This document shows, in pieces, positions 59 through 18,135 of a DNA stretch of 18,135 nucleotides. A program made the translations under genes and the position numbers. The notes beneath the pieces are model-generated. The model was not told the DNA's origin. It saw only the letters and a list, made by a program, of their open reading frames with translations, and ran no database searches. The stretch covers positions 1 to 18,135 of the forward strand of contig BTVV01000124.1 in NCBI GenBank assembly GCA_045863855.1, read 5' to 3'. The stretch comes from Planctomycetota bacterium. GTDB lineage: Bacteria > Planctomycetota > SZUA-567 > H5-PLA8. Within the stretch, counting starts at the first letter, position 1. Every line of letters begins with the position of its first letter.

Positions 59-298
59 TGATGCGCACGCAAAAGGGGACCGGTTGAGGGTCCGAATGCG
101 CAAGTAAAAGGGGACCACCGCACGCGTCCGGCTTGGTTAGCTTGAGGATTTTCCTCGGTTGACCAGGGGGGCGAGGAGGTGCTAGCGGTGGAACCGTACG
201 AACGCATCCGGCGGTTGGTGAAGGTCGAAGGGAAGAGCATCCGCGAAGCGGCCGAGAGCTTGGGGCATTCGCGGAAGACGATTCGCAAGGCGCTAGTC
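59..298 (+). mobile_element. IS21-family insertion sequence remnant (left end plus start of istA only)
   Basis: Begins with TG at 59. Two tandem ~21-nt terminal sub-repeats (61-81, 96-116) containing AAAAGGGGACC are followed by an RBS and an IstA-like N-terminal HTH. No DDE domain, istB or right end is present. The right boundary is approximate. Confidence 0.8.
61..116 (+). repeat. Direct sub-repeats of the IS21 left end (putative transposase-binding sites)
   Basis: ATGCGCACGCAAAAGGGGACC (61-81) vs ATGCGCAAGTAAAAGGGGACC (96-116): 19/21 identical, 35-nt period. Confidence 0.85.
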
Positions 299-415
299 GG
301 ATTTGGTGACCGCATCCCAAGCCATGAAACGGATTCTGCACCCGCCACTTGCACCTTGTACCCTTCCTTCTATAACGGCTCCACCCCTGGGCGGGATTCT
401 GCATCTCGACATTAA
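179..415 (+). pseudogene. istA: Truncated IS21 transposase IstA (N-terminal HTH, about 40 aa, then unrelated read-through)
   Basis: GTG start after a GAGGAG-rich stretch. MLAVEPYERIRRLVKVEGKSIREAAESLGHSRKTIRKAL matches the typical IstA N-terminus (..GxSIREIARxxGxSRxTIRKAL). Resemblance is lost after about position 298. Confidence 0.8.
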
Positions 416-523: not shown

Positions 524-1825
524 ATGGACCTGCGTTTTCATTGGCAAATGGGAAAGGCCGAAGGCACCTTAGCCAAGGGCCTGCTTGCCGACCTGCGGAT
601 GGCTCAGAGCATCGAGATCTGTGTCGCGTGGATTACGGATGGACCCATCCTGGAAGAATTGCGGCGTGCAGGACGGCGTGGGACGGAAATTATCCTTCGT
701 GTGGGCCTGGGTGGGTTTGTGACTGATCCGCGTGCCCTGAAGACGCTTCTCCGAGCCCCCAACACCCAAGTCCGCGTATGGGAAACGAGTCAGGGATCAC
801 TTTTCCACCCTAAGGTTTACCTGTGCGAGCAGAAGCGTCAGCGCAGCATCTGGATTGGCTCCAACAACGCCACGCGCTCCGCCTTGGAAGCGAACTGTGA
901 AGCGGCTTCCTGTGTCGCAAATCCAGACCCTGCATTTCTGCTGCAAGTCCGCAGCTTCTTCAGCGAAATAGAGGCTCGCTGTGTGCCCCTTTCCACGGCC
1001 ATATTGGAACGATACACAAAGAAGTACACCAAAGCCGCAGAGGCTCAACGGCGTGCGGAGGCCGCGGCGCGCGCGCGCCTAAAGACCGTGGCGAAAGCCA
1101 AGCGCAGCCAAGTGGGCGGTCACTGGTTCACGATGACGTGGCCCGAATATTTCCGCGCCTTGAAATCACAGAGTCGGGCCACTGGTGAGCATAGGGATCG
1201 CGACAAAGACTGGAGTGTCCTGCGTACACCTAAGGACAGCTACCTATCAACCATTGAAGATACGGCGAAGGTATTGCGAAGCAGGGGCCGAAACATCTCT
1301 AGGTTCGATTGCCAAAAAATTGTCGGCGACCATGCCTCCAAGGGAGAAGAGTGGTGGGAGTATGGACACCTCGGGACGATGACCGCCAGCGGCAAGACCA
1401 AGAATGGCGTCCTAGAGAACACCCGCGGCATGCGCGACCGGATTCTTGACATCTGCCGAGATCGTACGTTTTGGAAGGACCGGGAGTCATCTGTCAGTGG
1501 TGTTGCAGCGCTCTGGAAGATCCCGCGTGTCGGCCCTGGTTTGGCCAGCCGCATTGGCGCAATCCTGCGGCCGGATCTGCTGGTCTCAATCAACAACGCA
1601 GCGGTCGAACGACTTGCCAAAGAAACCGGCATCCCGGCAGGAAGAATCAGAAGCGATTGGCATGGCTATCGGGAGCTACTCGAGGTCATCTGGCAAGCAC
1701 CTTGGATGAATGAGACAACCAAGGCCAAGCCAGGCAGTTTGGAGCATCGCTGTTGGAAGGCCCGCTGCGCGCTGATCGACATGTTCGCGTATATGCATGC
1801 CCCGGAATTCAAGAGCGGGAGATAA
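524..1825 (+). CDS. PLD-superfamily (single HxK motif) nuclease, BfiI/NgoFVII-like N-terminal domain plus helical C-terminal domain, 433 aa
   Basis: RBS AAAGGA precedes the ATG. Motifs: IEICVAWIT, FHPKVYLCE (H at 806) and IWIGSNNATRSALEANCEA. A charged helical linker follows, then a C-terminal KIPRVGPGLASRIGAILRPD segment. Confidence 0.85.
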   Translation: MDLRFHWQMGKAEGTLAKGLLADLRMAQSIEICVAWITDGPILEELRRAGRRGTEIILRVGLGGFVTDPRALKTLLRAPNTQVRVWETSQGSLFHPKVYLCEQKRQRSIWIGSNNATRSALEANCEAASCVANPDPAFLLQVRSFFSEIEARCVPLSTAILERYTKKYTKAAEAQRRAEAAARARLKTVAKAKRSQVGGHWFTMTWPEYFRALKSQSRATGEHRDRDKDWSVLRTPKDSYLSTIEDTAKVLRSRGRNISRFDCQKIVGDHASKGEEWWEYGHLGTMTASGKTKNGVLENTRGMRDRILDICRDRTFWKDRESSVSGVAALWKIPRVGPGLASRIGAILRPDLLVSINNAAVERLAKETGIPAGRIRSDWHGYRELLEVIWQAPWMNETTKAKPGSLEHRCWKARCALIDMFAYMHAPEFKSGR

Positions 1826-1936: not shown

Positions 1937-2010
1937 CACAACCCCCTTTCTGAGACCAAGTTAGCGAGTTTCTCTAGCTAAGCCTGGATCAGTTTTTTGG
2001 GGGCAGGTCA
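1862..2010 (-). mobile_element. IS3-family (IS407-like) insertion sequence remnant, left end only
   Basis: Minus strand from 2010 reads TGACCTGCCCCCAAAAAACTGATCCAG, a typical IS3/IS407-group terminal repeat, followed by RBS AGAAAGGGGG and an OrfA-like start. The inner boundary is approximate. Confidence 0.8.
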
Positions 2011-2284
2011 GGTACGGCTCGGTCTCCGGCACCAGCGCCTTGGCCTGCTCGGGGTTCCCGAACTGCTCGGGCCTGACCTTGGGCAGCGAGCGCCCCTCGA
2101 ACTCCCACACGTCGGGCTTGGCCTCGCCCTCGTAAAGCGCAGGGAAGAAGCCCTCGTGCGGGACGTTTTCGCCGGGGATGGCCGCTTCCTCGCCTGCGAC
2201 CCTCAGCAGGCGATGGGCGGGACTGGATTCGAGAATCTCGGCACGCTTGAAGCCTTCTTGGGTGCGCAACCAGGCGATCGACAT
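1961..2284 (-). pseudogene. Hypothetical gene interrupted by IS3 at 2010; the last ~16 codons read through into the IS end
   Basis: RBS GGGAGA and ATG at 2284 (MSIAWLRTQEG...), with GC-rich coding-like codons up to ...VPETEPY. The frame then runs into the IS3 terminal repeat (LTCPQKTDPG). Confidence 0.65.
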
Positions 2285-2309
2285 GAGCGTTATCTCCCTG
2301 AACCATAAC

Positions 2310-2337
2310 GGTGTCAGGGGAAAGCCCAGTTGACACC
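2310..2337. promoter_or_regulatory. Inverted repeat GGTGTCA-N14-TGACACC (operator, hairpin or recombination site)
   Basis: Perfect 7-bp arms at 2310-2316 and 2331-2337 with an inner GGG-GAAAG-CCC. It lies next to a minus-strand TATGGT (-10-like, 2302-2307) upstream of the 2284 gene. Confidence 0.45.
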
Positions 2338-2448
2338 CCAAACTCGAGCGGCACGGAGGAGTTCAGAATGCAAAGTGGACCGATTGCATGTAATGCAAGA
2401 CGTCCTTCGATCAGCCAAACTAGGTCAGTTCAATTCTTGGCGCGATGG

Positions 2449-3447
2449 TCAACTCCAAGCTTTGAATAATTCGTCAAATGAGAAAAATCGCTTACTCAAC
2501 CAGCCTTTCCCCTTTTGAAGGTTATCCTTTTTAATCGGTGGGTTAAAAACCAATCGCGGTTCGCCTAGAAAGAGGATGCTCCTAACCTTCTTATCCTTCC
2601 GCCACTCCTCGCGTAGGCTGGAATTAGCGGTTGGCCTCCACCCTTCCAGGAGGACTTTGTTCTGGCGATACCATCTTCGACCTCGCGCGCGCTCTAGCGT
2701 GGCACGTAAATTGTCCCATGAGTCCACTACCTCAACATTCTCAAGTTTTGCGATGAAACTGATTCCCTGGCAAATTCCTGGGTGGTCATTCGCGATTCTT
2801 GCTCCAAAATGGGGCGCAAAATACATGGACTCTGCGAGCCTACTTCCGCGCTCGAACAGGCATGTGTAGAGTCTCGCGTGCAAGAACAGCTTCAAGGTAT
2901 TTTCGTTGTTGATCTCGCGGGCGTAGATCTCAACTGGTTCAGTTCGTATCATCCCATGTTCCTCCAAATGTCGCACCAATTCCAAGCAGTAGCCCTTGAA
3001 TGGCTGTCCGCTTCGATTGCCCACGCTCCGTAATGCTTTTGCAAGCACCTGCCATGAAACGTATCGGACGCTGCGACCTTTTCCCCGAACAACTTGGTCA
3101 GGAAGAGCGGACAGGATTACGTGCCAACGGCCCGCATACCTGCTGGCCTGCAAGCTCGAATCGGTCGCACCAATCTTTGCCTCGACCACACACCTGCCCT
3201 TGGAAGTTTCGATAACGATGTCTGTCCGCCCGCCATCTTCGGTCGTCTCAAGTTCGACTGAATTTGGCTGGCCATCAAAGCCCAAGAGTTCCCTGAAGGC
3301 TTCTAAACGTTGAGCGATGAGAAACCCCAAGTATGCGGTGAGCCTAGTCTCCTTTACCTGGCGCCCAAAAGCGCCAAGTAAAGTTGTTACGGTGGAGCCG
3401 CCCCTATAGAGGCAAACTTGCTCAATTTCTTTTGAACGATTATTCAT
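2449..3447 (-). CDS. PD-(D/E)XK nuclease N-terminal domain plus uncharacterised C-terminal domain, about 332 aa (start uncertain, up to 3483)
   Basis: ETRLTAYLGFLI...VELE...GRTDIVIETSKGRCVVEAK...QASRY...YVSWQVL is the E..D..ExK..Q..Y pattern of restriction-endonuclease-like proteins (catalytic motif at 3175-3228). The gene is visibly more AT-rich than its neighbours. Confidence 0.8.
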   Translation of the reverse strand: MNNRSKEIEQVCLYRGGSTVTTLLGAFGRQVKETRLTAYLGFLIAQRLEAFRELLGFDGQPNSVELETTEDGGRTDIVIETSKGRCVVEAKIGATDSSLQASRYAGRWHVILSALPDQVVRGKGRSVRYVSWQVLAKALRSVGNRSGQPFKGYCLELVRHLEEHGMIRTEPVEIYAREINNENTLKLFLHARLYTCLFERGSRLAESMYFAPHFGARIANDHPGICQGISFIAKLENVEVVDSWDNLRATLERARGRRWYRQNKVLLEGWRPTANSSLREEWRKDKKVRSILFLGEPRLVFNPPIKKDNLQKGKGWLSKRFFSFDELFKAWS

Positions 3448-3816
3448 TACCGAAATTGGACGGCTAACCATAGAAACAGTCAAGAGACTTCACGTTCGCA
3501 CCCTCGGTAACTCCTCCCACCGCGCCGTGAACCTCAGCAAGCGTTGCTCGGACTTCATGTACCAGGGTTTTCTGAAACCCTCGGCCGCTTAACGGACCTG
3601 CCCGGTGCCCCGGGAAACAAGGATGGAGATTTCGTGATTGAGCGCACTTATGCGGGGAGGCTGAACTCGCGCTGATGCTGGGGCATAAATCGCCCTTACC
3701 GTAGGTCCTGGCGCGGCCAGCGCTATCGTTGAATCAGTCAAAAAGTTCTATAGCCTATTGTCTCAGGTTATGGATACGGATTGACCGGTCGGAATTTTGC
3801 GCGTGGGAGGCCCAAC

Positions 3817-5457: not shown

Positions 5458-5508
5458 CAGTCGAGTTGCCATGTATGGACGAACGGAGTAGGAAGCAGGG
5501 AGTGCATT

Positions 5509-6039
5509 GTGGCGAACGAGAACGACGGACGCTTCACCATCGGGTCGGCCGAGGAACTCCAGGCTCGCTTCGGCTGGACGGCTGAGAACTGGAATCCGCC
5601 AAAGTTCAATCCAGAAGTGATTCCCGAGGGGCTAAGAGATCTCATCCCACTGGCGCAACGGTGGGGGGTCACGTGTGACATTACTCGGCATGACGTGGCG
5701 GTAAAGGCCAGCAAGGCCGAGTTATCCCATCTCGCCGCAAGCCTGCGAGGTCGCCACCACGAGATTGAGGACTGGCTGAATACCGCTGAGGATGAAGAAT
5801 CCGAAGAGGAACGCGCGGCCTTCCAGGCGATGATTGTGCTTGAGATGGAAGAGTGCGATGGCCCCGGATTGAAGGGGTTAATCGACTGGGCGATTCGGTG
5901 GTACAAGGACGCCCCATCCCCCAACCGCTTGCACAGGCTGAAGGCAGCTTATCAGGAGGTGCGCGGCTGGAAGTTCAACGAGGATTATCGGGACGCACTC
6001 TCGGAAGCACTTGCCCTGATTAAGCGCGCCTCCCAGTAG
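5509..6039 (+). CDS. Hypothetical acidic helical protein, 176 aa
   Basis: RBS AGGGAG precedes the GTG. Co-oriented 51 nt after the previous gene, with a protein-like sequence (IPEGLRDLIPLAQRWG...IEDWL). Confidence 0.7.
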   Translation: MANENDGRFTIGSAEELQARFGWTAENWNPPKFNPEVIPEGLRDLIPLAQRWGVTCDITRHDVAVKASKAELSHLAASLRGRHHEIEDWLNTAEDEESEEERAAFQAMIVLEMEECDGPGLKGLIDWAIRWYKDAPSPNRLHRLKAAYQEVRGWKFNEDYRDALSEALALIKRASQ

Positions 6040-6062
6040 CGCATCCGCGATCAGCGGACGCG
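6040..6062. terminator. GC hairpin right after the 6039 stop, between convergent genes
   Basis: CGC-A-TCCGC GATCA GCGGA-C-GCG. There is no U-tract, so terminator function is uncertain. Confidence 0.3.
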
Positions 6063-6160
6063 ACCTCGTCGAGGAACAAGATGCAGGAGCACATAGAGGC
6101 GATTCGCTTGATCGACCGGTAAGCCCGGCGCTCGCGGACAAGCTCGCCATTTACGATCCC

Positions 6161-6457
6161 CTAGTCGTAGTTCTCCCTATCGCCGAGGCGGCTGTAGTCG
6201 TACTCGGCCTCCTCCGGCGGGGCCTCGATGGGAACCTGCTGCACCAGCATGGGGAACCCCAGGGCGCCGAGGTAGTCCAGCGGCTCGCACAGGCCCGGCT
6301 CGCTGGCGCTCAGGACGACGTGTCGGGCGCCGTTGTTTGCCAGCAAGACTCTCGCCCGTTCGATGACCCGGTCATGGACCTCCTCGGCTGGCAGGCCTTC
6401 CGGCAGGTCCAGCTCGACGCGGACGGGAAAGACGGAGACGGCGGCGGTGACCTTCAT
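6161..6457 (-). CDS. Small hypothetical protein, 98 aa
   Basis: RBS AAAGGAG precedes ATG 6457 (MKVTAAVSVFPVRVELDLPEG). TATGAT lies upstream at 6489-6494. Confidence 0.7.
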   Translation of the reverse strand: MKVTAAVSVFPVRVELDLPEGLPAEEVHDRVIERARVLLANNGARHVVLSASEPGLCEPLDYLGALGFPMLVQQVPIEAPPEEAEYDYSRLGDRENYD

Positions 6458-6488
6458 GTGTTCAATGCTCCTTTCCATTCTCGGCGCG

Positions 6489-6494
6489 ATCATA
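6489..6494 (-). promoter_or_regulatory. Putative -10 box TATGAT for the 6457 gene
   Basis: Near-consensus hexamer in GC-rich DNA, 31 nt upstream of the ATG. No canonical -35 is present. Confidence 0.45.
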
Positions 6495-6522
6495 CGGGGC
6501 GAGGATCGACGCCATCAGCCAG

Positions 6523-7098
6523 TTATGCGGGCGCGCCTTGGTTCTCCGGGACCATTTTCAATTCCCCGACCAGGTACTCCAGCATGGGCACGAAACTCTC
6601 CGAGCCCACGTGGCAGACGGCATCTTCGCCGCCCAGTGGCTGGCCGTTCACCAGCACGCACCCGCGAACTCCGGGACCGACGCAGGTTGGCCCGAATCCC
6701 AGGTATTCGTAGTACGCCCAGCGCACGTAGGGACCGCTAGGGTCTCCCAGGGTTCCGGACTCAATGCAGCAGGGGACCGATTTCGGGCCATGTTCCCGAC
6801 CGCGCCGGGTCCGCTCGACGTCCCCCGGGGTGATGTCGGCGACGGGTTCCTCGTCAAAGGCGAAGGGGACGCCGTGGCGCGCCGCGATTTCTGCGACGAT
6901 TTGACGATCGTCCTGGGGCGCTGAGTCCTCCAAGTCGCCCCGCTCCTCGACCGTGGCCGGTGAGCCGCCGGCAGAAGCCTGATCGTCGGTCACGTCTGCC
7001 CGGAGGTACTCCGTGTACACATCGTCAGGATCGCCGTAACGCTCCTCGTACCACTCCTCGGTGTAATCTTCGGATTCCCAACTCACGAACTTTGACAT
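6523..7098 (-). CDS. Hypothetical protein with a very acidic N-terminus, 191 aa
   Basis: RBS AAAGGAG precedes ATG 7098 (MSKFVSWESEDYTEEWYEERYGDPDD). TATGAT lies upstream at 7137-7142. Confidence 0.7.
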   Translation of the reverse strand: MSKFVSWESEDYTEEWYEERYGDPDDVYTEYLRADVTDDQASAGGSPATVEERGDLEDSAPQDDRQIVAEIAARHGVPFAFDEEPVADITPGDVERTRRGREHGPKSVPCCIESGTLGDPSGPYVRWAYYEYLGFGPTCVGPGVRGCVLVNGQPLGGEDAVCHVGSESFVPMLEYLVGELKMVPENQGAPA

Positions 7099-7136
7099 TG
7101 GCTCGCTCCTTTCGCTCCCCTTCGCCATGGAATCGC

Positions 7137-7142
7137 ATCATA
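7137..7142 (-). promoter_or_regulatory. Putative -10 box TATGAT for the 7098 gene
   Basis: Same GTATGAT as at 6489-6495, at a similar distance from the RBS and ATG. Confidence 0.45.
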
Positions 7143-7159
7143 CAGATTCGCCCAGCCGA

Positions 7160-7396
7160 TCATCCGGTTGCGCCGGTCATTCCCTGACTTGCCTTCCTGC
7201 GATCCCGCCGCTCCCGCGCCGCCCTTATCTCCGGCTCCCGCTCGCGGACGAACCTCAGGACGCGATCGAGGTCGTACTCGCACGTGCGGCCCCGCGGTTG
7301 GTAGGGGTTGTAGCCGTGCTCGTCCGGCGGGCCGAGATCCTCGATCATCTTGGGCGTCAGGCCGTAGTCCTTGAGCTGGCTCTTGTAGACGCGCAT
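7160..7396 (-). CDS. Small basic protein, possible MerR/excisionase-like winged-HTH DNA binder, 78 aa
   Basis: RBS GAAGGA precedes ATG 7396. LKDYGLTPKMIEDLGPPD...NPY...YDLDRV has the helix-helix-wing-YxxxxV pattern of small DNA-binding proteins from mobile elements, with an Arg-rich tail. TATAAG lies upstream at 7468-7473. Confidence 0.65.
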   Translation of the reverse strand: MRVYKSQLKDYGLTPKMIEDLGPPDEHGYNPYQPRGRTCEYDLDRVLRFVREREPEIRAARERRDRRKASQGMTGATG

Positions 7397-7630
7397 TTTC
7401 GGTGTCCTTCCCTGGGTTCCTGACGCTGCTTCATTTCGGCAATCACCACATGTGTTCGCCAACTACTCTTATACAGGGAGGCGCGAGGACCTCGTCTTGG
7501 GCCGAGAGCACATGGAGATTCAGGCTTGGTCTTGCGGGTCGATCTTCCGGTTGGGCTCTGGCTGCCCGGTCACGCGCCCACGCGATTAGGTTGACCTCTT
7601 CCCGGTGCTTTGTTACTTCTTCCAGTTCCA

Positions 7631-8851
7631 ATGGATGCAAGCATGGACCGGCCCTCCACGCCCTTGAGCCCCTTGCCCTATCAGGGGGACATGGTGTCCT
7701 ACCTGCGGACCCGCGAGAAGGCCGTGTGGGCCTGGTACGCGGAGGACAAGCAGCAGTCCGCCTATGCGGACGCGGTTCGCCTGGAGCTCCTGAAGAAGAC
7801 CTACCGGCTGGACCGCCAGGCGCACGGCACGCTCTACGCGCGGGGCGACGAGGCCGCGCGGAAGCTCGGCGTGGACGTGCCCCTGACCTTCTATCAGGCG
7901 CAGCAGGACCATAACGCCATCAACGCGGCCATCTGCTGCCTGCCCGGCGAGGCCCACATCCTGCTGATGGGCCCGATCCTTGAGGTCCTGTCCGAGCCGG
8001 AGACGGACGCCCTGCTCGGCCACGAGCTGGGGCACTACAAGCTTCGCGAGCACGAGGGTGGCCAGCCGGCCGTCGCGGATCGCATCCTGGACGCGGTCGC
8101 CGCCGATTCCCGAGCCGAGCCCAGCCACGTCTGGAGCGCATTGCGGTTCAGGCAGTACGCGGAGATCTTCGCCGACCGGTGCTCCTACGCGGTCAGCGGG
8201 GACCTGAAGGCGGTCGTGGGCTGCCTGGTCAAGACGAGCACAGGCTCCAGGGACGTGAACGCGGAGTCCTACCTGGCGCAGGCCGAGGAGATATTCTCCA
8301 AGGGCGGCGTGGTGACCGAGGGCATCGTCCACCCCGAGACCTTCATTCGAACGCGAGCGCTTTCTCTCTGGGTCGGGGGAGCGCCGGATGCCGACGCGCG
8401 GATACGGGAGATGATCGAGGGTCCCACCAACCTTGAAAAGCTCGACCTGCTGGGACAGCAGGCCCTGGTGGCCTTGACGCGCCGGCTGATCGACGCGCTC
8501 CTCTCGAAGCGATGGATTCAATCCGATCCGGTCCTCGCACATGCTCGACTGCTGTTTCACGACTACACGCCGCCCTCGGCGGCAGCCGAGGACGAGGCCC
8601 TCTGGGGCGAGCTGGGACTCCTCGACAAGAGCGCGCGGGACTACTTCTGCTACATCCTGCTCGACTTCGCCTCCGTCGATACCAGCCTGGAAGACCTGCC
8701 CTTGGCCCGCGCCCTGGAGCTCGCCGAGAAGGCGGGGCTGCGCGAGCGCGTGGAGGAACTCGCCAATCGCGAGCTTCGGATCAGCAAGAAGATGCTCGCG
8801 AGCCTGAAGAAGGACGGCCCCGACATGCTGACGAGGGCCGAGACCGCGTGA
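7631..8851 (+). CDS. Soluble M48-like zinc metallopeptidase with a helical C-terminal domain, about 406 aa (alternative start 7643)
   Basis: INAAI strand, ILEVLSEPETDALLGHELGH (HExxH at 8021-8035), third ligand in YAEIFADR, and a downstream HP motif (GIVHPETFIR). No transmembrane segments are evident. Confidence 0.85.
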   Translation: MDASMDRPSTPLSPLPYQGDMVSYLRTREKAVWAWYAEDKQQSAYADAVRLELLKKTYRLDRQAHGTLYARGDEAARKLGVDVPLTFYQAQQDHNAINAAICCLPGEAHILLMGPILEVLSEPETDALLGHELGHYKLREHEGGQPAVADRILDAVAADSRAEPSHVWSALRFRQYAEIFADRCSYAVSGDLKAVVGCLVKTSTGSRDVNAESYLAQAEEIFSKGGVVTEGIVHPETFIRTRALSLWVGGAPDADARIREMIEGPTNLEKLDLLGQQALVALTRRLIDALLSKRWIQSDPVLAHARLLFHDYTPPSAAAEDEALWGELGLLDKSARDYFCYILLDFASVDTSLEDLPLARALELAEKAGLRERVEELANRELRISKKMLASLKKDGPDMLTRAETA

Positions 8852-11800
8852 CCACCTCTAGGCCGACCGAGGCACCAGCCGGCGACGCGCTGCACGCGTA
8901 CCTGAAGGCTCGCGCGGGGGGAGACCCGCCCGCTACCGACGAGATCCTGGGAACGCTCCTGCCGCTCTTCCGCCAGGTCATGGCCGCGCACAACCAGGGA
9001 CACGTCGCGCCGCTCGCGGGCCTGGATGACCTCCTGGTCACGAACGACACGTGCTGGTTCAACGAGCAGGCACGCCTCAAGCCCGCCCTCAACCTGGATG
9101 CCTTGCGCCGGATCGAGCGCGTCGAAAGCCGCGCCCTGCACATCGCGGGTTACCAGGACATCCGCGAGGAGGACGACGGCTCGCGCAAGGTCCGTAACCT
9201 TCTCGTGTCCAAGCGAGGGGATGCCATCGTCCGCCCGGTTTTTCTGCCCGGCTACGTCTCGTGGGAGCACGAGGTCGAGCACCACGACCAGCTAACCGAC
9301 ATTTTCTCGCTAGGGCTGATCGCCGCGAGCTTGGCCTGCGGCTTCGACTTCGCCGAGGAGGAGGATCTGGAGCGCTTCGTCGATCTTCGGGTCAACCTGT
9401 TCCAGGTGAATCCCCGCCTGCACCAAGTCGTGGCAAAGGCCATTTCCGGCATGACGGAGATTCGCAGGCACGATCGCGTGCCCGACCTGAATGGCCTGAT
9501 CGAGACCCTGACGAATTACCGCCACCAGGTGGCGATGCCGGACCTCGACTTCCACAGGATCGCCGGGTTCAAGGAGGCCACGCACCTCGACCGCAGCAAG
9601 ATCATCCAGCAGCGCCTGCGCGACCGGCTCTTCGACATCTCCAGGCGCAACCGGCTGCTCTATTTCCGGCCGACCTTGCAGATGCTCAACCTGACCGTCG
9701 CCTCCGTGCCGTTGATGCTCGACCACAAGCACATCAAGCCGGACGCCCTGTGCACCTGGCAGGGCGAGTTCGCCGGGACGATCTCGGAGGGCGGCACTGT
9801 CCACCTGGGCAAGTACCTGCGGTTCGAGGACGCCCCGTACCTGCCCAGCGTGCTGGACCAGATCCGGAACCAGGAGGCGCGGGACAGGAACGAGTACGGG
9901 TTCAGCCAGTTGCGCCTGGTCCTCGCGTTCCTACGCTGGCACAACCTGAAGGAGGCGAAGGAGGAGCGGATCACCTCGCCGCTGGTGCTGCTGCCGGTGG
10001 CCCTGGAGCGACAGAAGGGCGTGCGCGACAGCTACAAGATCACGCCTCATTCGACGGAGGCCGAGGTCAACCCTGTCCTGCGTTACCACCTCAAGCAGCT
10101 CTACGGGCTACAGTTGCCGGAGATCATCGACCTGTCGCAGGCGAGCCTCGACTCGTTCTTCGAGATCCTCCAGTCCCAGATTCACGCCAGCGAGCCGGGC
10201 ATCACGCTCCGGAGGCTGGATCGCCCGCAGGTGAAACTCGTCCACGAGCGCGCACGGGCCCGGGTGGAGGTCTTCCGCAGGAGGGCGCGCCTGACCGGTA
10301 AGGGCGTGCGGTCCCTTGACGGCATCGACTACTCCTACTCGCGGGACAACTTCCAGCCTCTTGGCCTCCAACTGTTCCTGAAGCGCGTCCGTCCCAGTCC
10401 GTTGCCGCAGCAGGACGTGGCCGGCGAGGCCCCCAGGCCCAGGCTGTTGCACATCCAGCCCGAGTCGCCGCCTTCGGGCGCCATGCGCGAGCGGGACATG
10501 TACGTGCTCCAGGAGGAGCGCGAGAGCAACCCCTACGTCTGGGACTTCGACCTCTGCAACCTGACGCTGGGGAACTTCAACTACCGCAAGATGTCGCTGG
10601 TGCGCGACTACAACACGCTCCTGGAAGGCGACTTCCCCAACCCGGCCTTCGACGCGACCTTCTCGCTCCAACCCAGGAAGACCGAGCCGACGGGGAATGC
10701 CGTCCTCCCGCACGAAGACGCGTACCAGATCGTCCACAGCGACCCGACGCAGACGACCGCCGTGGCGCGCGCCCGGACCGGGGCCAGCTTCATCATCCAG
10801 GGGCCTCCCGGAACGGGGAAGTCGCAGACCATCACCAACCTGATCGCGGACTACGTGGCGCGGGGCAAGCGCGTGCTCTTCGTCTGCGAGAAGCGCGCGG
10901 CGATCGACGTCGTTTACCACCGGCTCAAGCAGCGCGGCATGGACAGGCTCTGCTGCCTCATCCACGACTCGCAGGCGGACAAGAAGGCCTTCATCCTCGA
11001 CTTGAAGCAGACCTACGAGAAGTACCTGGCCGAAGCCAGTGCCCTGAGGGTAGTGAGGGAGGAGCGTGAGCAGGTCGTCAAGCACCTGAGGTTCGAACTG
11101 GACGCCCTGGAGCGATTCTCGACGGCAATGGGCCATGCGGACCCGCGGGACGGCGTGCCCCTGCGATTCGTCTACAACCGGCTCATCGAGCTCTCGGACC
11201 GGCTCCCCGAGGTGACCGACGCGGACGCCGAGCGGCTTCCCGGGTACGCGGCGTGGGGCAAGTTCGACAAGAGCGTCCGCTCCCTGTCCCGCATCCTTAA
11301 GGAGGCGTCCGGGGAGGAGGTCTTCGGGAACCACGCCCTGCGCGACCTGGCCATGCCGATGATCCAGGCCGATCGACCCATCGAGGCCATCACCAGGAGC
11401 ATCGACGAGCTGGGACCGCTCCTGGACGAACTCCATGGGAAGCTGGGATCGTGCGGCCTGCCGGGCGAGACCCTTCCCTCGCTGGAGGCGGTCCTGGAGG
11501 TCGTGGGGTACGCGGAGCGGCTCAAGCTCCTCTGCGACACCGGCCAAGGCAACCTGCTGAACGCCCGGGACCCCGCCGTGCAGCGGCTCCACGCGGCCGT
11601 CTCGGACATTCGTGGGCTGAGCGGCCGGCTCGACAAGGCTGCCCAGAAGACCACGCACTGGCGCGAGAAGATCCCGCCGGATGACCTGCAAGCCGTCCTG
11701 GATCAGGCGCGCGACCTCGAAGGCTCCATCTTCAGGTTCCTCCTGCCCTCGTTCTGGAAGCTCCGAGGGATCTTGAAGTCGCGTTACGACTTCCCGGCGC

Positions 11801-14031
11801 ATGTCGTCGCGCCGGCCTGGAGCAGAATCCTGGCCGATCTCAAGGCGGAGTACGACGCGCGGGACGCCCACGACGAGGCCCTCGGGAAGGCGCGGGCCCA
11901 ATTCAAGACGGACGACCTGGAAAGTCTGGCCTCTCTCGTCGAGGAACTGCACGCCGCCGAGCCGATGCTCAAGCCCGCGATGCGTGCCCTGCGCGAGCGT
12001 GTGCTTTCCAACGCGGTCACCGCCCAGGAACTCGCCGCCATCCTCGGCGCGGGCCCCGTCGCGAAGGCCATGGGCCAGATCCTTGGCCATTTGCTCGTCG
12101 ACCATGACAAGAAGAAGCTCGCTCGCCTGGCGGACGAGCTGGCGGCCATGCGCGAGGCATTGCCGGTCCTGCCGGAGATCCTGCCCGTCCTCACGGACTT
12201 GCTGACTGCTCCCCCCGATCTGTACCGGGCGCTTCGCGAGCGGCCCTGGACCCCGGACGAGCTGGAGGCCGGCATCCTGCTCGCGGCGCTCTTGCGCGCT
12301 TACCGGCGCGACCGCTCCCTGCCCAGGACCGACGGCCGCGTCCTGTCGCAGCACGTCGAGCGGATTCGGGATCATCACAACGCGTGGATGGGACTGAACT
12401 CCAGGCTGATCCTCGAAGGGGTCCACGAGCACTTCGTGACCAAGGCCAACCTGACGAGCTTGCCCGCCGCGCAACTGACGACCGAGCAGAAGGAGCTGAA
12501 GAAGGTCTACTCCAAGGGGCGGCGCGAGCTGGAGCACGAGTTCGGGAAGGTTATGCGCTACCGCTCCATCCGGGACCTGTCAGACGACGAGACCGGCGTG
12601 CTCGTTGCTGACCTCAAGCCGATCTGGCTGATGAGCCCCTTGAGCGTCTCGGATACCCTGCCCCTGACGGGGACGAGCTTCGACGTGGTCATCTTCGACG
12701 AGGCCAGCCAGATCCCCCTTGAGGAGGCTGTCCCCGCGCTCTACCGCGCCCCGCAGATCATCGTCGTGGGCGACGAGAAGCAGCTCCCGCCGACCGACTT
12801 CTTCTCGTCCAAGGGCGAGGAGGCGGAAGAGGAACCCGGCGCCGACGAGCTGCCGGACGCGCTTGGCTATGAGTTGTCCAGCGACAGCTTCCTCTCCCAG
12901 TCGGCCGAGAACCTGCCCGCGACCATGCTGTGCTGGCACTACCGCAGCCGGTCCGAGTCGCTGATCAGCTTCTCGAACTCCGCGTTCTACAGCCGCAAGC
13001 TCCTGACGGTCCCGGACGTGGCCCTCCAGACCGCGACCCAGCCCATCTTGGCGGCCTCGGCGACGGCGGGTGACCAGCACATGAGCCACGTGCTTGATCG
13101 CCCGCTGAGTTTCCATTTCATGCCCAACGGGGTGTATCGGGACCGTCGCAACGCGGGCGAGGCCGAGTACATCGCCCGGGTCGTGCGGGGACTCCTGAAG
13201 GAGAAGGTCGGCCTGAGCATCGGCATCGTGGCGTTCTCGGAGGCGCAGCAGGGCGAGATCGAGGGGGCCATGAACTCCCTGGCGGGCCAGGATTCCGAGT
13301 TCGACGAGTTGCTCCAGGCCGAGATGGAGCGTGAGGAGGACGACCAGTTCTGCGGGCTGTTCGTGAAGAACCTGGAGAACGTGCAGGGCGACGAGCGCGA
13401 CATCATCATCATGAGCGTCTGCTATGGCCACGACGCGAACGGCAAGATGCTCATGAACTTCGGGCCCATCAATAAGCGCGGCGGCGAGAAGAGGCTGAAC
13501 GTGGTCTTCTCCCGAGCCCGCCGGCACATGGCGCTGGTCTCCTCGATCAAGCACACGGACATCACCAACGACTACAACGACGGCGCGAGCTGCCTGAAGC
13601 GCTACCTGGCCTACGCCGAGGCGCTCTCGGGCGGACAGGCTGACCTGGCCCGCCGGATTCTGGGAACCTTTTCGACTGGTGCGGAGACGGACGGCAGGGA
13701 CGCCACCCAGCAAGGACTCGTGAGCGCCTTAGCAGCCGCGCTGCGAGAACGCGGGTACGTGGTTGACCTGAGCGTGGGCGACTCGGACTTCCGATGCGAC
13801 GTCGCGATACGCAGGCCCGAGGATGATCGCTATCGACTGGGAATTCTCATCGAGCGCGCCAATAGTGCTCCTCAGGAGAATGTACTGGAGGAATGCGTCC
13901 TTCGCCCAGCCGTCTTGGGCGCGTTTGATTGGCAAGTTCTGCGGGTCTTGGCAAAGGACTGGCACCATGACCGGGACTCCGTGTTGGCTGGCATCGAACG
14001 AACCCTGTCGGCTTCAGTGCCCCTAAGGTAA
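8848..14031 (+). CDS. Multidomain protein: degenerate kinase C-lobe, DUF4011, UPF1/DNA2-like SF1 helicase and Vsr/MTES_1575-like nuclease fold, about 1727 aa
   Basis: GTG 8848 overlaps the peptidase TGA (GTGA). Motifs: PGYVSWE..DQLTDIFSLG; LRDRLFDISRRNRLLYF (DUF4011); IQGPPGTGKSQTI (10801); VLFVCEKRAAIDVV; VIFDEASQ (12697); VVGDEKQLPP; HYRS; ENVQGDERD; RLNVVFSRAR; C-terminal FRCDVAI..YRLGILIE..WQVLRV. Confidence 0.92.
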   Translation: MTTSRPTEAPAGDALHAYLKARAGGDPPATDEILGTLLPLFRQVMAAHNQGHVAPLAGLDDLLVTNDTCWFNEQARLKPALNLDALRRIERVESRALHIAGYQDIREEDDGSRKVRNLLVSKRGDAIVRPVFLPGYVSWEHEVEHHDQLTDIFSLGLIAASLACGFDFAEEEDLERFVDLRVNLFQVNPRLHQVVAKAISGMTEIRRHDRVPDLNGLIETLTNYRHQVAMPDLDFHRIAGFKEATHLDRSKIIQQRLRDRLFDISRRNRLLYFRPTLQMLNLTVASVPLMLDHKHIKPDALCTWQGEFAGTISEGGTVHLGKYLRFEDAPYLPSVLDQIRNQEARDRNEYGFSQLRLVLAFLRWHNLKEAKEERITSPLVLLPVALERQKGVRDSYKITPHSTEAEVNPVLRYHLKQLYGLQLPEIIDLSQASLDSFFEILQSQIHASEPGITLRRLDRPQVKLVHERARARVEVFRRRARLTGKGVRSLDGIDYSYSRDNFQPLGLQLFLKRVRPSPLPQQDVAGEAPRPRLLHIQPESPPSGAMRERDMYVLQEERESNPYVWDFDLCNLTLGNFNYRKMSLVRDYNTLLEGDFPNPAFDATFSLQPRKTEPTGNAVLPHEDAYQIVHSDPTQTTAVARARTGASFIIQGPPGTGKSQTITNLIADYVARGKRVLFVCEKRAAIDVVYHRLKQRGMDRLCCLIHDSQADKKAFILDLKQTYEKYLAEASALRVVREEREQVVKHLRFELDALERFSTAMGHADPRDGVPLRFVYNRLIELSDRLPEVTDADAERLPGYAAWGKFDKSVRSLSRILKEASGEEVFGNHALRDLAMPMIQADRPIEAITRSIDELGPLLDELHGKLGSCGLPGETLPSLEAVLEVVGYAERLKLLCDTGQGNLLNARDPAVQRLHAAVSDIRGLSGRLDKAAQKTTHWREKIPPDDLQAVLDQARDLEGSIFRFLLPSFWKLRGILKSRYDFPAHVVAPAWSRILADLKAEYDARDAHDEALGKARAQFKTDDLESLASLVEELHAAEPMLKPAMRALRERVLSNAVTAQELAAILGAGPVAKAMGQILGHLLVDHDKKKLARLADELAAMREALPVLPEILPVLTDLLTAPPDLYRALRERPWTPDELEAGILLAALLRAYRRDRSLPRTDGRVLSQHVERIRDHHNAWMGLNSRLILEGVHEHFVTKANLTSLPAAQLTTEQKELKKVYSKGRRELEHEFGKVMRYRSIRDLSDDETGVLVADLKPIWLMSPLSVSDTLPLTGTSFDVVIFDEASQIPLEEAVPALYRAPQIIVVGDEKQLPPTDFFSSKGEEAEEEPGADELPDALGYELSSDSFLSQSAENLPATMLCWHYRSRSESLISFSNSAFYSRKLLTVPDVALQTATQPILAASATAGDQHMSHVLDRPLSFHFMPNGVYRDRRNAGEAEYIARVVRGLLKEKVGLSIGIVAFSEAQQGEIEGAMNSLAGQDSEFDELLQAEMEREEDDQFCGLFVKNLENVQGDERDIIIMSVCYGHDANGKMLMNFGPINKRGGEKRLNVVFSRARRHMALVSSIKHTDITNDYNDGASCLKRYLAYAEALSGGQADLARRILGTFSTGAETDGRDATQQGLVSALAAALRERGYVVDLSVGDSDFRCDVAIRRPEDDRYRLGILIERANSAPQENVLEECVLRPAVLGAFDWQVLRVLAKDWHHDRDSVLAGIERTLSASVPLR

Positions 14032-14041
14032 GGATCACCCC

Positions 14042-14479
14042 ATGTCCTCCTTCGCCTCCGCCCTCAAATCCGAAATCTCCCGCATCGCCCGCAAGGAATC
14101 GCGCGCCCAAGCCGCCCCGCTCCACCGCGCCTCGACCCAGTACCGCCGCGACGTAGCCGCCCTGAAGCGCCAGGTAGCGCGCCTGACCAAACAGGTCGCG
14201 TTCCTGGAAGGCCAGGAGCGTAGCCGTGTCGCCCAGCCCGTCGTAGCCGCCGATACTAAGGCCCGATTCAGTCCCATGTGGCTCAAGAAACATCGCGCCA
14301 AACTGGATCTCTCGGCCGAGCAGTACGCCAAGCTCGCCGGCGCCTCAGCGCAATCGGTCTACTTCTGGGAGTTGGGCAAGACGAAGCCCCGGGCATCGCA
14401 GGTGGCGGCGCTGGCGGCCTTGAGGGGCCTGGGCAAGCGCGAGGCGTTGGAGCGGCTACGGGTGCTGGAGGGGGCGTGA
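14042..14479 (+). CDS. XRE-family HTH DNA-binding protein with an N-terminal coiled coil, 145 aa
   Basis: RBS AAGGA. LKSEISRIARKE...VAALKRQVARL coiled coil, then LKKHRAKLDLSAEQYAKLAGASAQSVYFWELGKTKP, an XRE HTH. Confidence 0.85.
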   Translation: MSSFASALKSEISRIARKESRAQAAPLHRASTQYRRDVAALKRQVARLTKQVAFLEGQERSRVAQPVVAADTKARFSPMWLKKHRAKLDLSAEQYAKLAGASAQSVYFWELGKTKPRASQVAALAALRGLGKREALERLRVLEGA

Positions 14480-16544: not shown

Positions 16545-16916
16545 TCATGCGGACCGTGCGGCTGATCGCGTAGCACGCTTAAACCTAAAGCTCGATATAT
16601 TCATTATATAGAATACTGCCACATTGACTACCGCAACAAATATAATGTTAGTCGCAACAAAATGCCACGACCAACATTTACTTGTTCCCCCCCATACGCT
16701 CGGTAGCCCATGCCGCTCTATTTGCATTTCCCCAGTCATGCTTACATACTCGTACATAATCATGGGCCAGCCGGCTTTAATAGTAACAATCGCCACGTTA
16801 TCTGGGTCGTGTTCAATAATATCAACGCTACTGCTCGGCATAAGATTTAAGCCCATTATGACTCCCGTCAACAGAACGCAAATAATATACGCGACCAAGG
16901 ATATTCTCATACTCAT
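16545..16916 (-). CDS. Candidate RHS immunity/partner protein with two hydrophobic segments, 123 aa
   Basis: ATG 16916 overlaps the RHS TGA (ATGA). AT-rich like the RHS tip. Hydrophobic stretches ISLVAYIICVLLTGVIMGL and FVATNIIFVAVVNVAVFYIM. Confidence 0.7.
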   Translation of the reverse strand: MSMRISLVAYIICVLLTGVIMGLNLMPSSSVDIIEHDPDNVAIVTIKAGWPMIMYEYVSMTGEMQIERHGLPSVWGGTSKCWSWHFVATNIIFVAVVNVAVFYIMNISSFRFKRATRSAARSA

Positions 16917-18135
16917 CCACCAGTCCATTTCGCTTTATCACACAGTTCTTTCAGCATTACCTCCTCGCCCTTCTTGTTCTTGATTTTCGAGCCTCCATCC
17001 TCTTTTGATGGCCTCAGGTTGCTTGGAACCTTAGCAGTTCCTTTCCGCAGACCGCCTTCACCAACACTCCAATCCAGCTCGTAACCCCACTTCATCGCCC
17101 CCAGAAACTTTCGAGGCTCATAGCAACAAAACACCGTATAGAACTCAGTTCGGACCACGTAATGAGGATTGGTTCTTCCAAGTCCCTCTCTCACTCGCTT
17201 CCAATTTGCATACTCCCTATAGCCGGGCGCGTCTTCAACAAAAGGAGTCTTTCCTGCTTGGCCTGGTGCAGCCGAAGCCTCATCTTCTTTTTTCTTTCTC
17301 ACATTAGTATACCAATATCCATCTCTTGGGTTTTTGTCCAAATCCCACTCTCCCCACTTGAACTCTCCACCTTCCTCGGTTTGTGTGCCTTCTCTAAAAA
17401 ATTGCACCACTTCAACATTCTCGCACCCGCATTCCTTCACTTGCATCTCAACTACCAACCCGGCCCCGATGCCAAGATCTTCTCCTTTCGGTTCTCTTGC
17501 CTCCCGAAGAGTAATATCAACCGTTACAGTGACCTCTCCAAGTTCAACGTCAATGGGATCCCCAAATGGATCAGTAAATACAAGAGGCATACCAAACTGA
17601 TATTGATAGAAACTCGGGTCTAAATACTCATTCAACCACCTCCCCACAAACCTCCCCAACTCCGCCGAGTAATACCGGTTCTTGTAGTACATCAGGCCCG
17701 TCTCGGCATCCAAGCGCTGCCCCGTGTAGAACCACGGGTTCCCAATCGCCGAAGTCGACGCCGTCACGTCATCGCCCGTAAACCACGTCGCGTCCGTCCC
17801 CGCCCCCGTGATGATCGTCGGCTTACCGTACGCGTCGTAGCTCTTCACGGCCTCGACGATGTTCCCCGAGGCGTTCGTGATCGCGTGGACGGAGTAGAGG
17901 TGGTTGGAATGGTAGTAATACTTGGTTCCGGCCGAATTGCGCATCATCAGGACTTCATCGAGGTAGGTCCCGAACACGAACAGCCGATCCGGCGAAGCCA
18001 CGTTCGCGCCGTTGTCGTACTCCGAGATGCACCGCCAGCCGTCGTAAACGAAGACCGTCGAATTTCCGTCGAAGGTCTTCTTCACGCGCCGGCGGAACGC
18101 ATCGTAAACATAATCGGCCGTGTTCGCGCCGACCG
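16913..18135 (-). CDS. RHS/YD-repeat protein, 3' part (open past the window edge), with a ~215-aa variable C-terminal domain
   Basis: The frame is open to the edge (YVYDAFRRRVKK). Motifs FVYDGWRCISEYD, YYYHSNHLYSV, SYDAYG, NPWFYTGQRLDAETGLMYYKNRYYSAELGRF and TDPFG (17561-17572), then an AT-richer tip. Confidence 0.95.
   Translation of the reverse strand, partial: VGANTADYVYDAFRRRVKKTFDGNSTVFVYDGWRCISEYDNGANVASPDRLFVFGTYLDEVLMMRNSAGTKYYYHSNHLYSVHAITNASGNIVEAVKSYDAYGKPTIITGAGTDATWFTGDDVTASTSAIGNPWFYTGQRLDAETGLMYYKNRYYSAELGRFVGRWLNEYLDPSFYQYQFGMPLVFTDPFGDPIDVELGEVTVTVDITLREAREPKGEDLGIGAGLVVEMQVKECGCENVEVVQFFREGTQTEEGGEFKWGEWDLDKNPRDGYWYTNVRKKKEDEASAAPGQAGKTPFVEDAPGYREYANWKRVREGLGRTNPHYVVRTEFYTVFCCYEPRKFLGAMKWGYELDWSVGEGGLRKGTAKVPSNLRPSKEDGGSKIKNKKGEEVMLKELCDKAKWTGG

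Follow-up and report, generated by a model that had tools for sequence, protein, structure and literature searches.

The protease–helicase gene pair

The subject of this report is a pair of genes in an 18,135-nt stretch of Planctomycetota bacterium DNA (contig BTVV01000124.1, assembly GCA_045863855.1), which in its full length is referred to here as the window. The first, gene A, encodes a soluble zinc protease, and the second, gene B, encodes a protein of 1727 residues that combines a remnant of a protein kinase, a DUF4011 domain, a superfamily 1 (SF1) helicase and a nuclease-like domain. The two genes are coupled, the motifs of the protease and the helicase are intact, the nuclease motif is lost, the kinase remnant is non-catalytic, and there is a fused counterpart that has no such remnant. 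A preliminary description of this DNA had proposed two co-oriented genes with a GTGA overlap, a soluble peptidase with an HExxH motif, and a 1727-residue protein with DUF4011 and intact SF1 motifs, and all of these are confirmed by the analysis. The features of the pair, in window positions, are the following.

7631-8851, + strand: gene A, 406 aa, a soluble zinc protease of the M48 type (gluzincin) that ends in a helical domain
8021-8035, + strand: HExxH zinc site HELGH, residues 131-135 (H131, E132, H135)
8162-8164, + strand: E178, likely third zinc ligand
8459-8785, + strand: tentative TerB-like helical domain, residues 277-385
8848-8851, + strand: GTGA start/stop overlap, read in the sequence (translational coupling)
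8848-14031, + strand: gene B, kinase lobe-DUF4011-SF1 helicase-eroded nuclease protein, 1727 aa, GTG start and TAA stop
8869-9531, + strand: protein-kinase C-lobe remnant, residues about 8-228, with an insert of ~50 residues that holds a low-confidence hairpin
9625-10092, + strand: DUF4011, residues 260-415 (Pfam, E=1.2e-13)
10801-10824, + strand: Walker A sequence GPPGTGKS (motif I, GPPGTGKSQT, at residue 652)
11095-12531, + strand: insert of ~480 residues within the helicase, between motifs Ia and II, with no Pfam match
12532-13563, + strand: remainder of the Upf1/DNA2-type SF1 helicase, motifs II-VI
13726-14004, + strand: MTES_1575/Vsr-like domain (Pfam REase_MTES_1575, residues 1627-1719)

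The protease

Gene A matches Pfam Peptidase_M48 with 29.5 bits (E=8e-7) against a cut-off of 20.3. Its stop is the TGA that ends at 8851, and an alternative start at the ATG at 7643 would give a protein of 402 aa. Five residues are nearly invariant among 269 homologues (H131 is kept in 267, E132 in 269, H135 in 268, E178 in 268 and H234 in 266), and this conservation argues that gene A is an active gluzincin; E178 is taken to be a zinc ligand from what is generally known of these enzymes. The highest hydropathy over 19 residues is 1.6, so that no transmembrane helix is predicted, and values above 1.9 occur in just 5 of the 269 homologues. The protein is not HtpX proper, as it scores only 24 bits against the NCBIfam cut-off of 275 and also lacks the membrane helices. 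Its predicted structure has a pLDDT of 93.9 (78 sequences in the alignment), and the best fold matches to residues ~25-250 are ZMPSTE24, 3c37 and Ste24p (Z 8.6-9.0). Membership in the M48/gluzincin group is thus indicated by the HExxH motif, the downstream Glu and the HtpX/Ste24-like fold. A Foldseek search with the gene A model gave nothing under 1e-3, and the protease profile gave nothing under E=0.1 against the sequences of solved structures. SprT-like matches in Pfam occur in some members.

The C-terminal helical domain of gene A is most similar to 2h5n (Z 7.5) and to the TerB-family structure 2ou3 (Z 6.2), a tellurite-resistance protein. It matches the TerB region of the fused relatives described below weakly at the profile level (E=0.05), and a Pfam scan of gene A gave no TerB match. 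PF05099, which we take to be the TerB family, is listed at the corresponding place in some of the fused relatives.

The kinase remnant and the helicase

The model of the N-terminal domain of gene B (pLDDT 89) superposes on PknB with Z 14.3 and an rmsd of 5.6 over 173 aligned residues; Foldseek also finds the kinase C-lobe (best E=3e-4), with concordant Atlas features. The model starts at the C-lobe, most matches picking up the kinase domain only from residue about 80-130 onwards, and the ATP-binding N-lobe is therefore absent. Neither HRD nor DFG occurs in the consensus of a 45-row alignment of the lobe, and only the late motifs, the GYxxxE...D-I-F-S-L-G part, can be aligned with true kinases. 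What defines an active Ser/Thr kinase (an N-lobe with Gly loop and Lys, HRD, and DFG) is missing, and judged by established kinase chemistry the predicted lobe cannot work as a kinase. The hairpin within its insert (residues about 91-120) is exposed in the model, has a pLDDT of 60-76, and contains no invariant residue.

The helicase has all of motifs Q, I, Ia, II (DEASQ, residue 1284), III, IV, V and VI and is matched by Pfam AAA_11/AAA_12. These motifs, from Q to VI, are conserved in 25-27 of 27 paired proteins, and the nearest solved relatives are IGHMBP2, Sen1, DNA2 and Upf1. A WGR domain follows the helicase-nuclease part in 15 of 19 complete paired proteins (from 23 rows that match 17 Pfam families, four of the rows being cut by contig ends), and there is no WGR tail in the window copy.

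The eroded nuclease domain

The Vsr-like C-terminus of the preliminary description is correct as to the fold, which is retained, but the conserved residues of a catalytic site are gone. Of the residues conserved in the family, the window domain is missing the Glu, the Glu-x-Asp-Gly, the His and the second Asp; its eight motif positions read Val, Asp, Leu, Glu, Arg, Ala, Glu and Cys. We take these positions to be catalytic by analogy with Vsr-type nucleases and from their conservation in the controls. Four Hhe-like proteins from plasmids share the pattern FE...ID...(I/V)ECDG..YH...RDRD, which is absent from the paired proteins. By an alignment-free count, E-x-D-G is present in 4/4 Hhe-like and 20/25 ProA proteins (30 ProA fetched, five dropped for want of an anchor motif or for length), and in 0/27 paired and 0/112 fused proteins (120 fused fetched, eight dropped). 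Among the 27 paired proteins, 20 have Val for the helix-1 Glu and 20 have Tyr for the second Asp, and none keeps the motif Glu, which is Leu, Ile or Val. The nuclease of the fused proteins is eroded further still, and the first Asp of the fold is Pro in 102 of 112. Gene B thus does not have the conserved motif of ProA and Hhe (Glu, Asp, E-x-D-G, His, R-D-x-x-R), and the nuclease of the paired proteins is probably inactive.

Linkage of the two genes

The family is sizeable, with 469 representatives of 50%-identity clusters at E<1e-30. Metagenome loci were chosen by protease-alignment patterns alone (the best 80 of 468, partly redundant), and with gene B as the sole probe 70 of these 80 gave a match just downstream on the same strand, while the other ten ended within 132 nt. 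The genes overlap by 4 or 8 nt (-4 or -8) in 53 of the 70. When a profile of the kinase lobe was used as the probe, which was built partly from the same metagenome loci, the match was directly adjacent in 71 of the 72 informative loci (eight were too short). The exception, L080, has an AAA_21 ATPase gene between the protease and helicase genes, on the opposite strand (2811-3797, -).

The linkage also holds in reverse, in genome samples drawn within the window's own phylum. The protease is present in 7 of 301 genomes, and the kinase lobe in those seven and in one more that is cut by a contig end; a draw of 401 genomes added two with the kinase lobe, both with an adjacent protease. The lobe is therefore found in 10 of 401 genomes, with the protease directly upstream in nine (the window's own genome included) and the tenth cut off by the contig end. 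Adjacency of homologues had been suggested as a check on the pair, and it is found in 71/72 cases in the forward direction and in 9/9 informative cases in reverse. As a control, neither the protease nor the kinase lobe lies within 1.5 kb of any of 30 ProA loci over cut-off. The spread of the protease is patchy (7/301 genomes in the phylum, 4/62 in the class, and one of the two other genomes of the genus). A Planctomycetota bacterium metagenome-assembled genome carries a relative at 96% identity with both genes and the identical overlap, from which we conclude that both reading frames are real. Considering all of this, the protease–helicase pairing is close to obligate.

In plasmid records the protease occurs in 14, all of them Ralstonia, and adjacency was examined in four of these; the helicase gives a match in 451 plasmid records, near full-length in 14. 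The pair is absent from viral contigs, searched with both profiles, and from 50,697 phage records, and a scan of genome contigs with the single window protein gave only one close relative. A few copies are broken: L043 and L045 have lost about 1000 residues internally, and L050 has a frame break. The protein P0269 looks like a fusion of the pair but is most likely a sequence error, because the protease frame is lost at about residue 290 and the end of the protein is out of frame again.

A family with protease and helicase in one chain

A true single chain is represented by P0270, which contains M48, a TerB-type region, DUF4011, helicase and MTES domains in one protein. Its N-terminal region, used as a query, retrieves at least 202 clusters (90% identity) of 1150-3650 aa, with named members from Polyangium, Nannocystis, Kofleriaceae and Denitratisoma. 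The best 120 of the 202 all list helicase domains; in these, HExxH lies in the first 300 residues of 118/120, Walker A is present in 117/120, the window protease profile matches 120/120, and the kinase lobe is found in 0/120. The zinc ligands are intact in 40 of 40 sampled fused proteins. A quick tree of 80 helicase cores, in which one in four of the fused proteins was used and three near-copies and eight rows without anchors were left out, resolves three groups, namely ProA with Hhe, paired, and fused, each with support of 99-100. Protein P0332 (P0335 is of similar length) is a fused-type protein with an extra DEDDh exonuclease domain at the N-terminus, so that a nuclease has been regained on a protease-helicase chain.

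Comparison with known systems

The best model for gene B is that of ProA, the protein of Prometheus (NF058533, 662.6 bits), which remains under the cut-off of 1500 bits, and the PADLOC candidate PDC-S37 scores the same region of gene B (663 bits). The Hhe model (NF042953), for a DUF4011-helicase-Vsr protein reportedly described by Gao et al. in 2020, shares its core domains with gene B and gives 449 bits, but its 2000-bit cut-off is far from reached. In contrast to the pair, the nuclease motif is kept in 4/4 Hhe-like controls, and no M48 gene is annotated beside these four. Mokosh MkoA, which presumably carries kinase domains, is similar in its SF1 helicase (137 bits, the match being limited to the helicase region), whereas the pair has a C-lobe without catalytic parts, and a protease as partner.

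ProA and gene B have in common DUF4011, an SF1 helicase split by a long insert, and the MTES_1575 fold; ProA differs in that 20 of 25 proteins keep the nuclease motif, while the pair consists of two genes, has the kinase lobe in front, and occupies a separate branch of the tree. DUF3320, which is C-terminal in ProA, is not among the Pfam families matched by the 23 paired members. ProA exceeds its cut-off in 38 of the 301 phylum genomes, and ProA-like matches occur in 124. ProA is described, in the accessible part of the source, as a single four-domain protein (PMC13700489), and gene B, with its protease partner in every informative genome, does not fit that arrangement. The pair is thus built like ProA and Hhe but is not a member of either, because both cut-offs are failed, DUF3320 and the nuclease motif are missing, and the partner is obligate.

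Two other kinds of system can be compared with the pair in single features, of which the TerB-like domain is tentative in gene A. In Shango, a TerB-like domain acts with a helicase in tested phage defence, according to the available portion of PMC10250203, and TerB domains are likewise reported for the tested systems Bunzi and Dionysus in the available portions of PMC10250203 and 10.1101/2025.09.30.679545. Unlike the pair, Shango has three genes (TerB-like, ATPase and DEAD-box helicase), a helicase of another superfamily, and no protease, and the Shango models match neither of the two proteins. CapP-CapH and IrrE/PprI-DdrO have, like the pair, a soluble zinc metallopeptidase, and theirs is switched on by a nucleic-acid signal, as far as the accessible texts go; immune metallopeptidases activated by single-stranded DNA (ssDNA) are also documented in the available text of 10.64898/2026.05.16.725639. 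In CapP the peptidase itself is the ssDNA binder and its substrate is a fixed repressor, whereas the pair has a helicase partner and no conserved helix-turn-helix (HTH) partner.

Our literature search, which did not extend to subscription journals or supplements, where a candidate table might list the pair, found no paper that links DUF4011 with peptidase M48 and no named system for the pair, and combinations of DUF4011 with TerB, WGR, M48 or metalloprotease returned nothing on it. The pair is not described in the accessible parts of the Tiamat and ParA preprints (10.64898/2026.09.30.754977, 10.64898/2026.10.19.760177) and of PMC11232893, and the part of PMC12255303 that is accessible has an M48 gene beside a type I restriction-modification system, which is not the protease-helicase pair. 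The preliminary description knew of no named system with this pairing, and this literature gives none; the proposal of a two-component unit related to Hhe and ProA is also upheld, as 71/72 loci are adjacent and these are the top models. The pair is real, strongly coupled and undescribed within the literature searched, and an exchange of one effector for another is probable.

Possible function of the pair

Judged by its nearest models (ProA, PDC-S37 and Hhe), and also by its patchy spread, the pair is likely to be kin to defence systems. The two nuclease-like genes upstream in the window, the type I restriction subunit near one relative (L105) and the occurrence of TerB domains in tested systems point the same way. 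The explanation that we favor, with a confidence just short of even, is an anti-phage response in which the helicase is the sensor of foreign or damaged nucleic acid, the protease is held in place by the kinase remnant, and the response is carried out by proteolysis. A sensor helicase that controls an effector protease would be the simplest wiring, because the helicase motor and the protease site are constrained and the nuclease site is not; with the conserved nuclease-site residues gone from the helicase protein, the protease is the likely acting part. The kinase lobe is confined to the two-chain form, which suggests that it is a docking platform. The steps would be as follows. The helicase would load onto single-stranded DNA, RNA or an R-loop, and the eroded nuclease fold, together with WGR in most relatives, may aid the loading as binders. 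The kinase C-lobe would dock the protease, standing in for the covalent link of the fused form, and an ATP-driven change would then free the protease site. Finally, the protease would cut a protein encoded outside the unit, either a host protein (leading to growth arrest) or a phage protein on the nucleic acid. The substrate is placed outside the unit because no third gene is conserved; no neighbour family occurs in more than 5 of 89 clustered loci, barring 8 antisense frames over the pair.

More tentatively, the pair could belong to an undescribed class of bacterial immune systems, in which a zinc protease has replaced the nuclease as the effector of helicases of the Prometheus/Hhe type, either in one chain or in two chains bridged by a stripped kinase lobe. 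Within such a class the helicase, while moving along the nucleic acid of an invader, would trigger the protease or feed proteins to it (a prokaryotic helicase-gated protease). Prometheus and Hhe, the known members built on this helicase scaffold, are as yet little understood, and the pair would show a natural swap of their nuclease for a protease as effector. As a switch, a protease coupled to a helicase and gated by nucleic acid would be of a new kind.

Several observations weigh against the anti-phage explanation or limit the evidence for it. First, a defence-island setting is not seen in the relatives. PADLOC matches at 1e-15 are found in 9 of 168 neighbours of the pair (133 of 181 called frames and 35 from seven genome regions) versus 11 of 68 ProA neighbours (of 10 ProA genes, chosen because their contigs are long), or in 5/168 versus 6/68 when generic kinases, ABC transporters and the like are removed by eye, and most neighbours of the pair are housekeeping genes. 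This test has little power, because genes in high-GC DNA escaped the frame caller and only 3 of the 10 ProA loci themselves have a non-generic PADLOC match nearby. Second, two or three acidic residues remain in the nuclease fold of the paired proteins (the first Asp in 26 of 27), and 5 of the 25 ProA rows likewise have no E-x-D-G, so that the loss of nuclease function stays a matter of probability and residual activity is possible. Third, the 70 proteases are redundant, forming 61, 24 and 12 clusters at 90, 70 and 60% identity, and the tree, being unrooted, cannot tell whether the split and fused protease-bearing groups share an origin. Fourth, the TerB-like assignment of the C-terminus of gene A stays tentative, since Z values of 6-7.5 are middling for a helical domain. 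Finally, PMC13700489 reports that Prometheus works only when its four domains are all there, which does not tell the role of the eroded domain in the pair.

A different explanation, which we consider unlikely, is that the pair serves clean-up and not immunity. The helicase would travel along RNA or DNA and feed stuck or cross-linked proteins to the protease, in the manner of Wss1, a eukaryotic protease that acts on DNA-protein cross-links (10.64898/2026.09.30.754977, from the text accessible). Genes for RNA and NAD repair recur near the pair in a few loci, and these, the other repair genes named below, the WGR domains, the SprT-like matches and the scarcity of defence neighbours are in keeping with clean-up. 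Yet the pair is rare and patchy (7/301), unlike a core repair pathway, the repair neighbours come from a handful of partly related loci and have no fixed order, and the closest characterised relatives are anti-phage. If this explanation were true, the pair would be a bacterial counterpart to the DNA-protein cross-link proteases.

The preliminary description had the protease activating a helicase-nuclease. In this form, the target of the protease would be the product of gene B, cut for instance within the kinase-lobe insert, or else the protease would sense a phage protein; the freed helicase or helicase-nuclease would be the effector. The strict linkage fits such a scheme, the exposed hairpin could be the cut site, and some acidic residues are left in the nuclease fold. 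However, the nuclease motif is absent from all 139 protease-linked proteins (27/27 paired and 112/112 fused) while the protease site is nearly invariant, the fused family manages without a kinase lobe, and no residue of the hairpin is invariant. Activation by cleavage is therefore improbable in our estimation; the order of events looks reversed, with the protease more likely the output.

There is a still smaller chance that the pair relays a signal in the manner of CapP and CapH. Activated by the helicase, the protease would cleave a distant transcriptional repressor and so induce other genes. The ssDNA-activated immune metallopeptidases cited above offer a precedent, an HTH_3 gene starts 10 nt past the helicase stop in the window, and HTH_17 genes adjoin the pair in L034, L044 and L104. 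These HTH genes differ in family and position, however, and none belongs to a neighbour family that recurs beyond the limit given above. That two unrelated genes merely travel together, as the intervening gene in L080 and the broken copies in L043, L045 and L050 might suggest, is in effect ruled out by the existence of a fused family, by the linkage in both directions, and by the overlap kept in most loci.

Other features of the window and of related loci

The preliminary description had also mentioned other nucleases nearby, and two candidates do lie 4-6 kb upstream of the pair, one of them with a weak PDDEXK_4 match below the Pfam cut-off. This is the PD-(D/E)XK-like gene at 2449-3483 (- strand; PDC-S26, E=5e-6), and the other is a PLD-like gene at 524-1825 (+ strand; PLDc_2, E=4.5e-10, with weak ZacB and DrmC matches); either may be a stand-alone nuclease. 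A short HTH fragment at 179-415 (+ strand), which is IS21 IstA-like, and a remnant at 1961-2341 (- strand), which by eye is like the start of an AAA_5 ATPase gene that is whole in L105:5333-6889, are signs of a rearranged region. Scanning 7300-7700 for promoters and terminators gave nothing. Downstream, the HTH_3 gene occupies 14042-14479 (+ strand), and the close relative L001 has different DNA at this place. The stretch at 16913-18133 (- strand) looks by eye like an RHS-type repeat core whose C-terminal tail is variable; it has a lower GC content than the rest and no Pfam match at 0.01. A fragment of a second, ProA-like DUF4011 protein is located elsewhere in the genome (G000:C193:7315-8205).

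In the related loci, genes for RNA repair and NAD/ADP-ribose clean-up are near the pair in L006, L032, L062, L065, L108 and L001. They include RtcB in L001, L006 and L108, PNKP in L006, RtcR and TROVE in L108, and Tpt1, ADP-ribosylglycohydrolase and NUDIX in L032. Other repair genes near the pair are Mfd in L027, a DNA ligase in L040, and an unusually long uvrA (about 1945 codons) that comes after the pair in Ralstonia (L090:21892-27729). In the relative L105, the gene for a type I restriction subunit lies about 13 kb from the pair. An unannotated gene is directly downstream of the pair in three related loci (L023:8223-8681, L032:15179-16663 and L061:14867-16735), and is followed in L032 by a SWIM-type gene. 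In L062, a second, unrelated M48 gene (5475-7802, - strand) is head to head with the pair.

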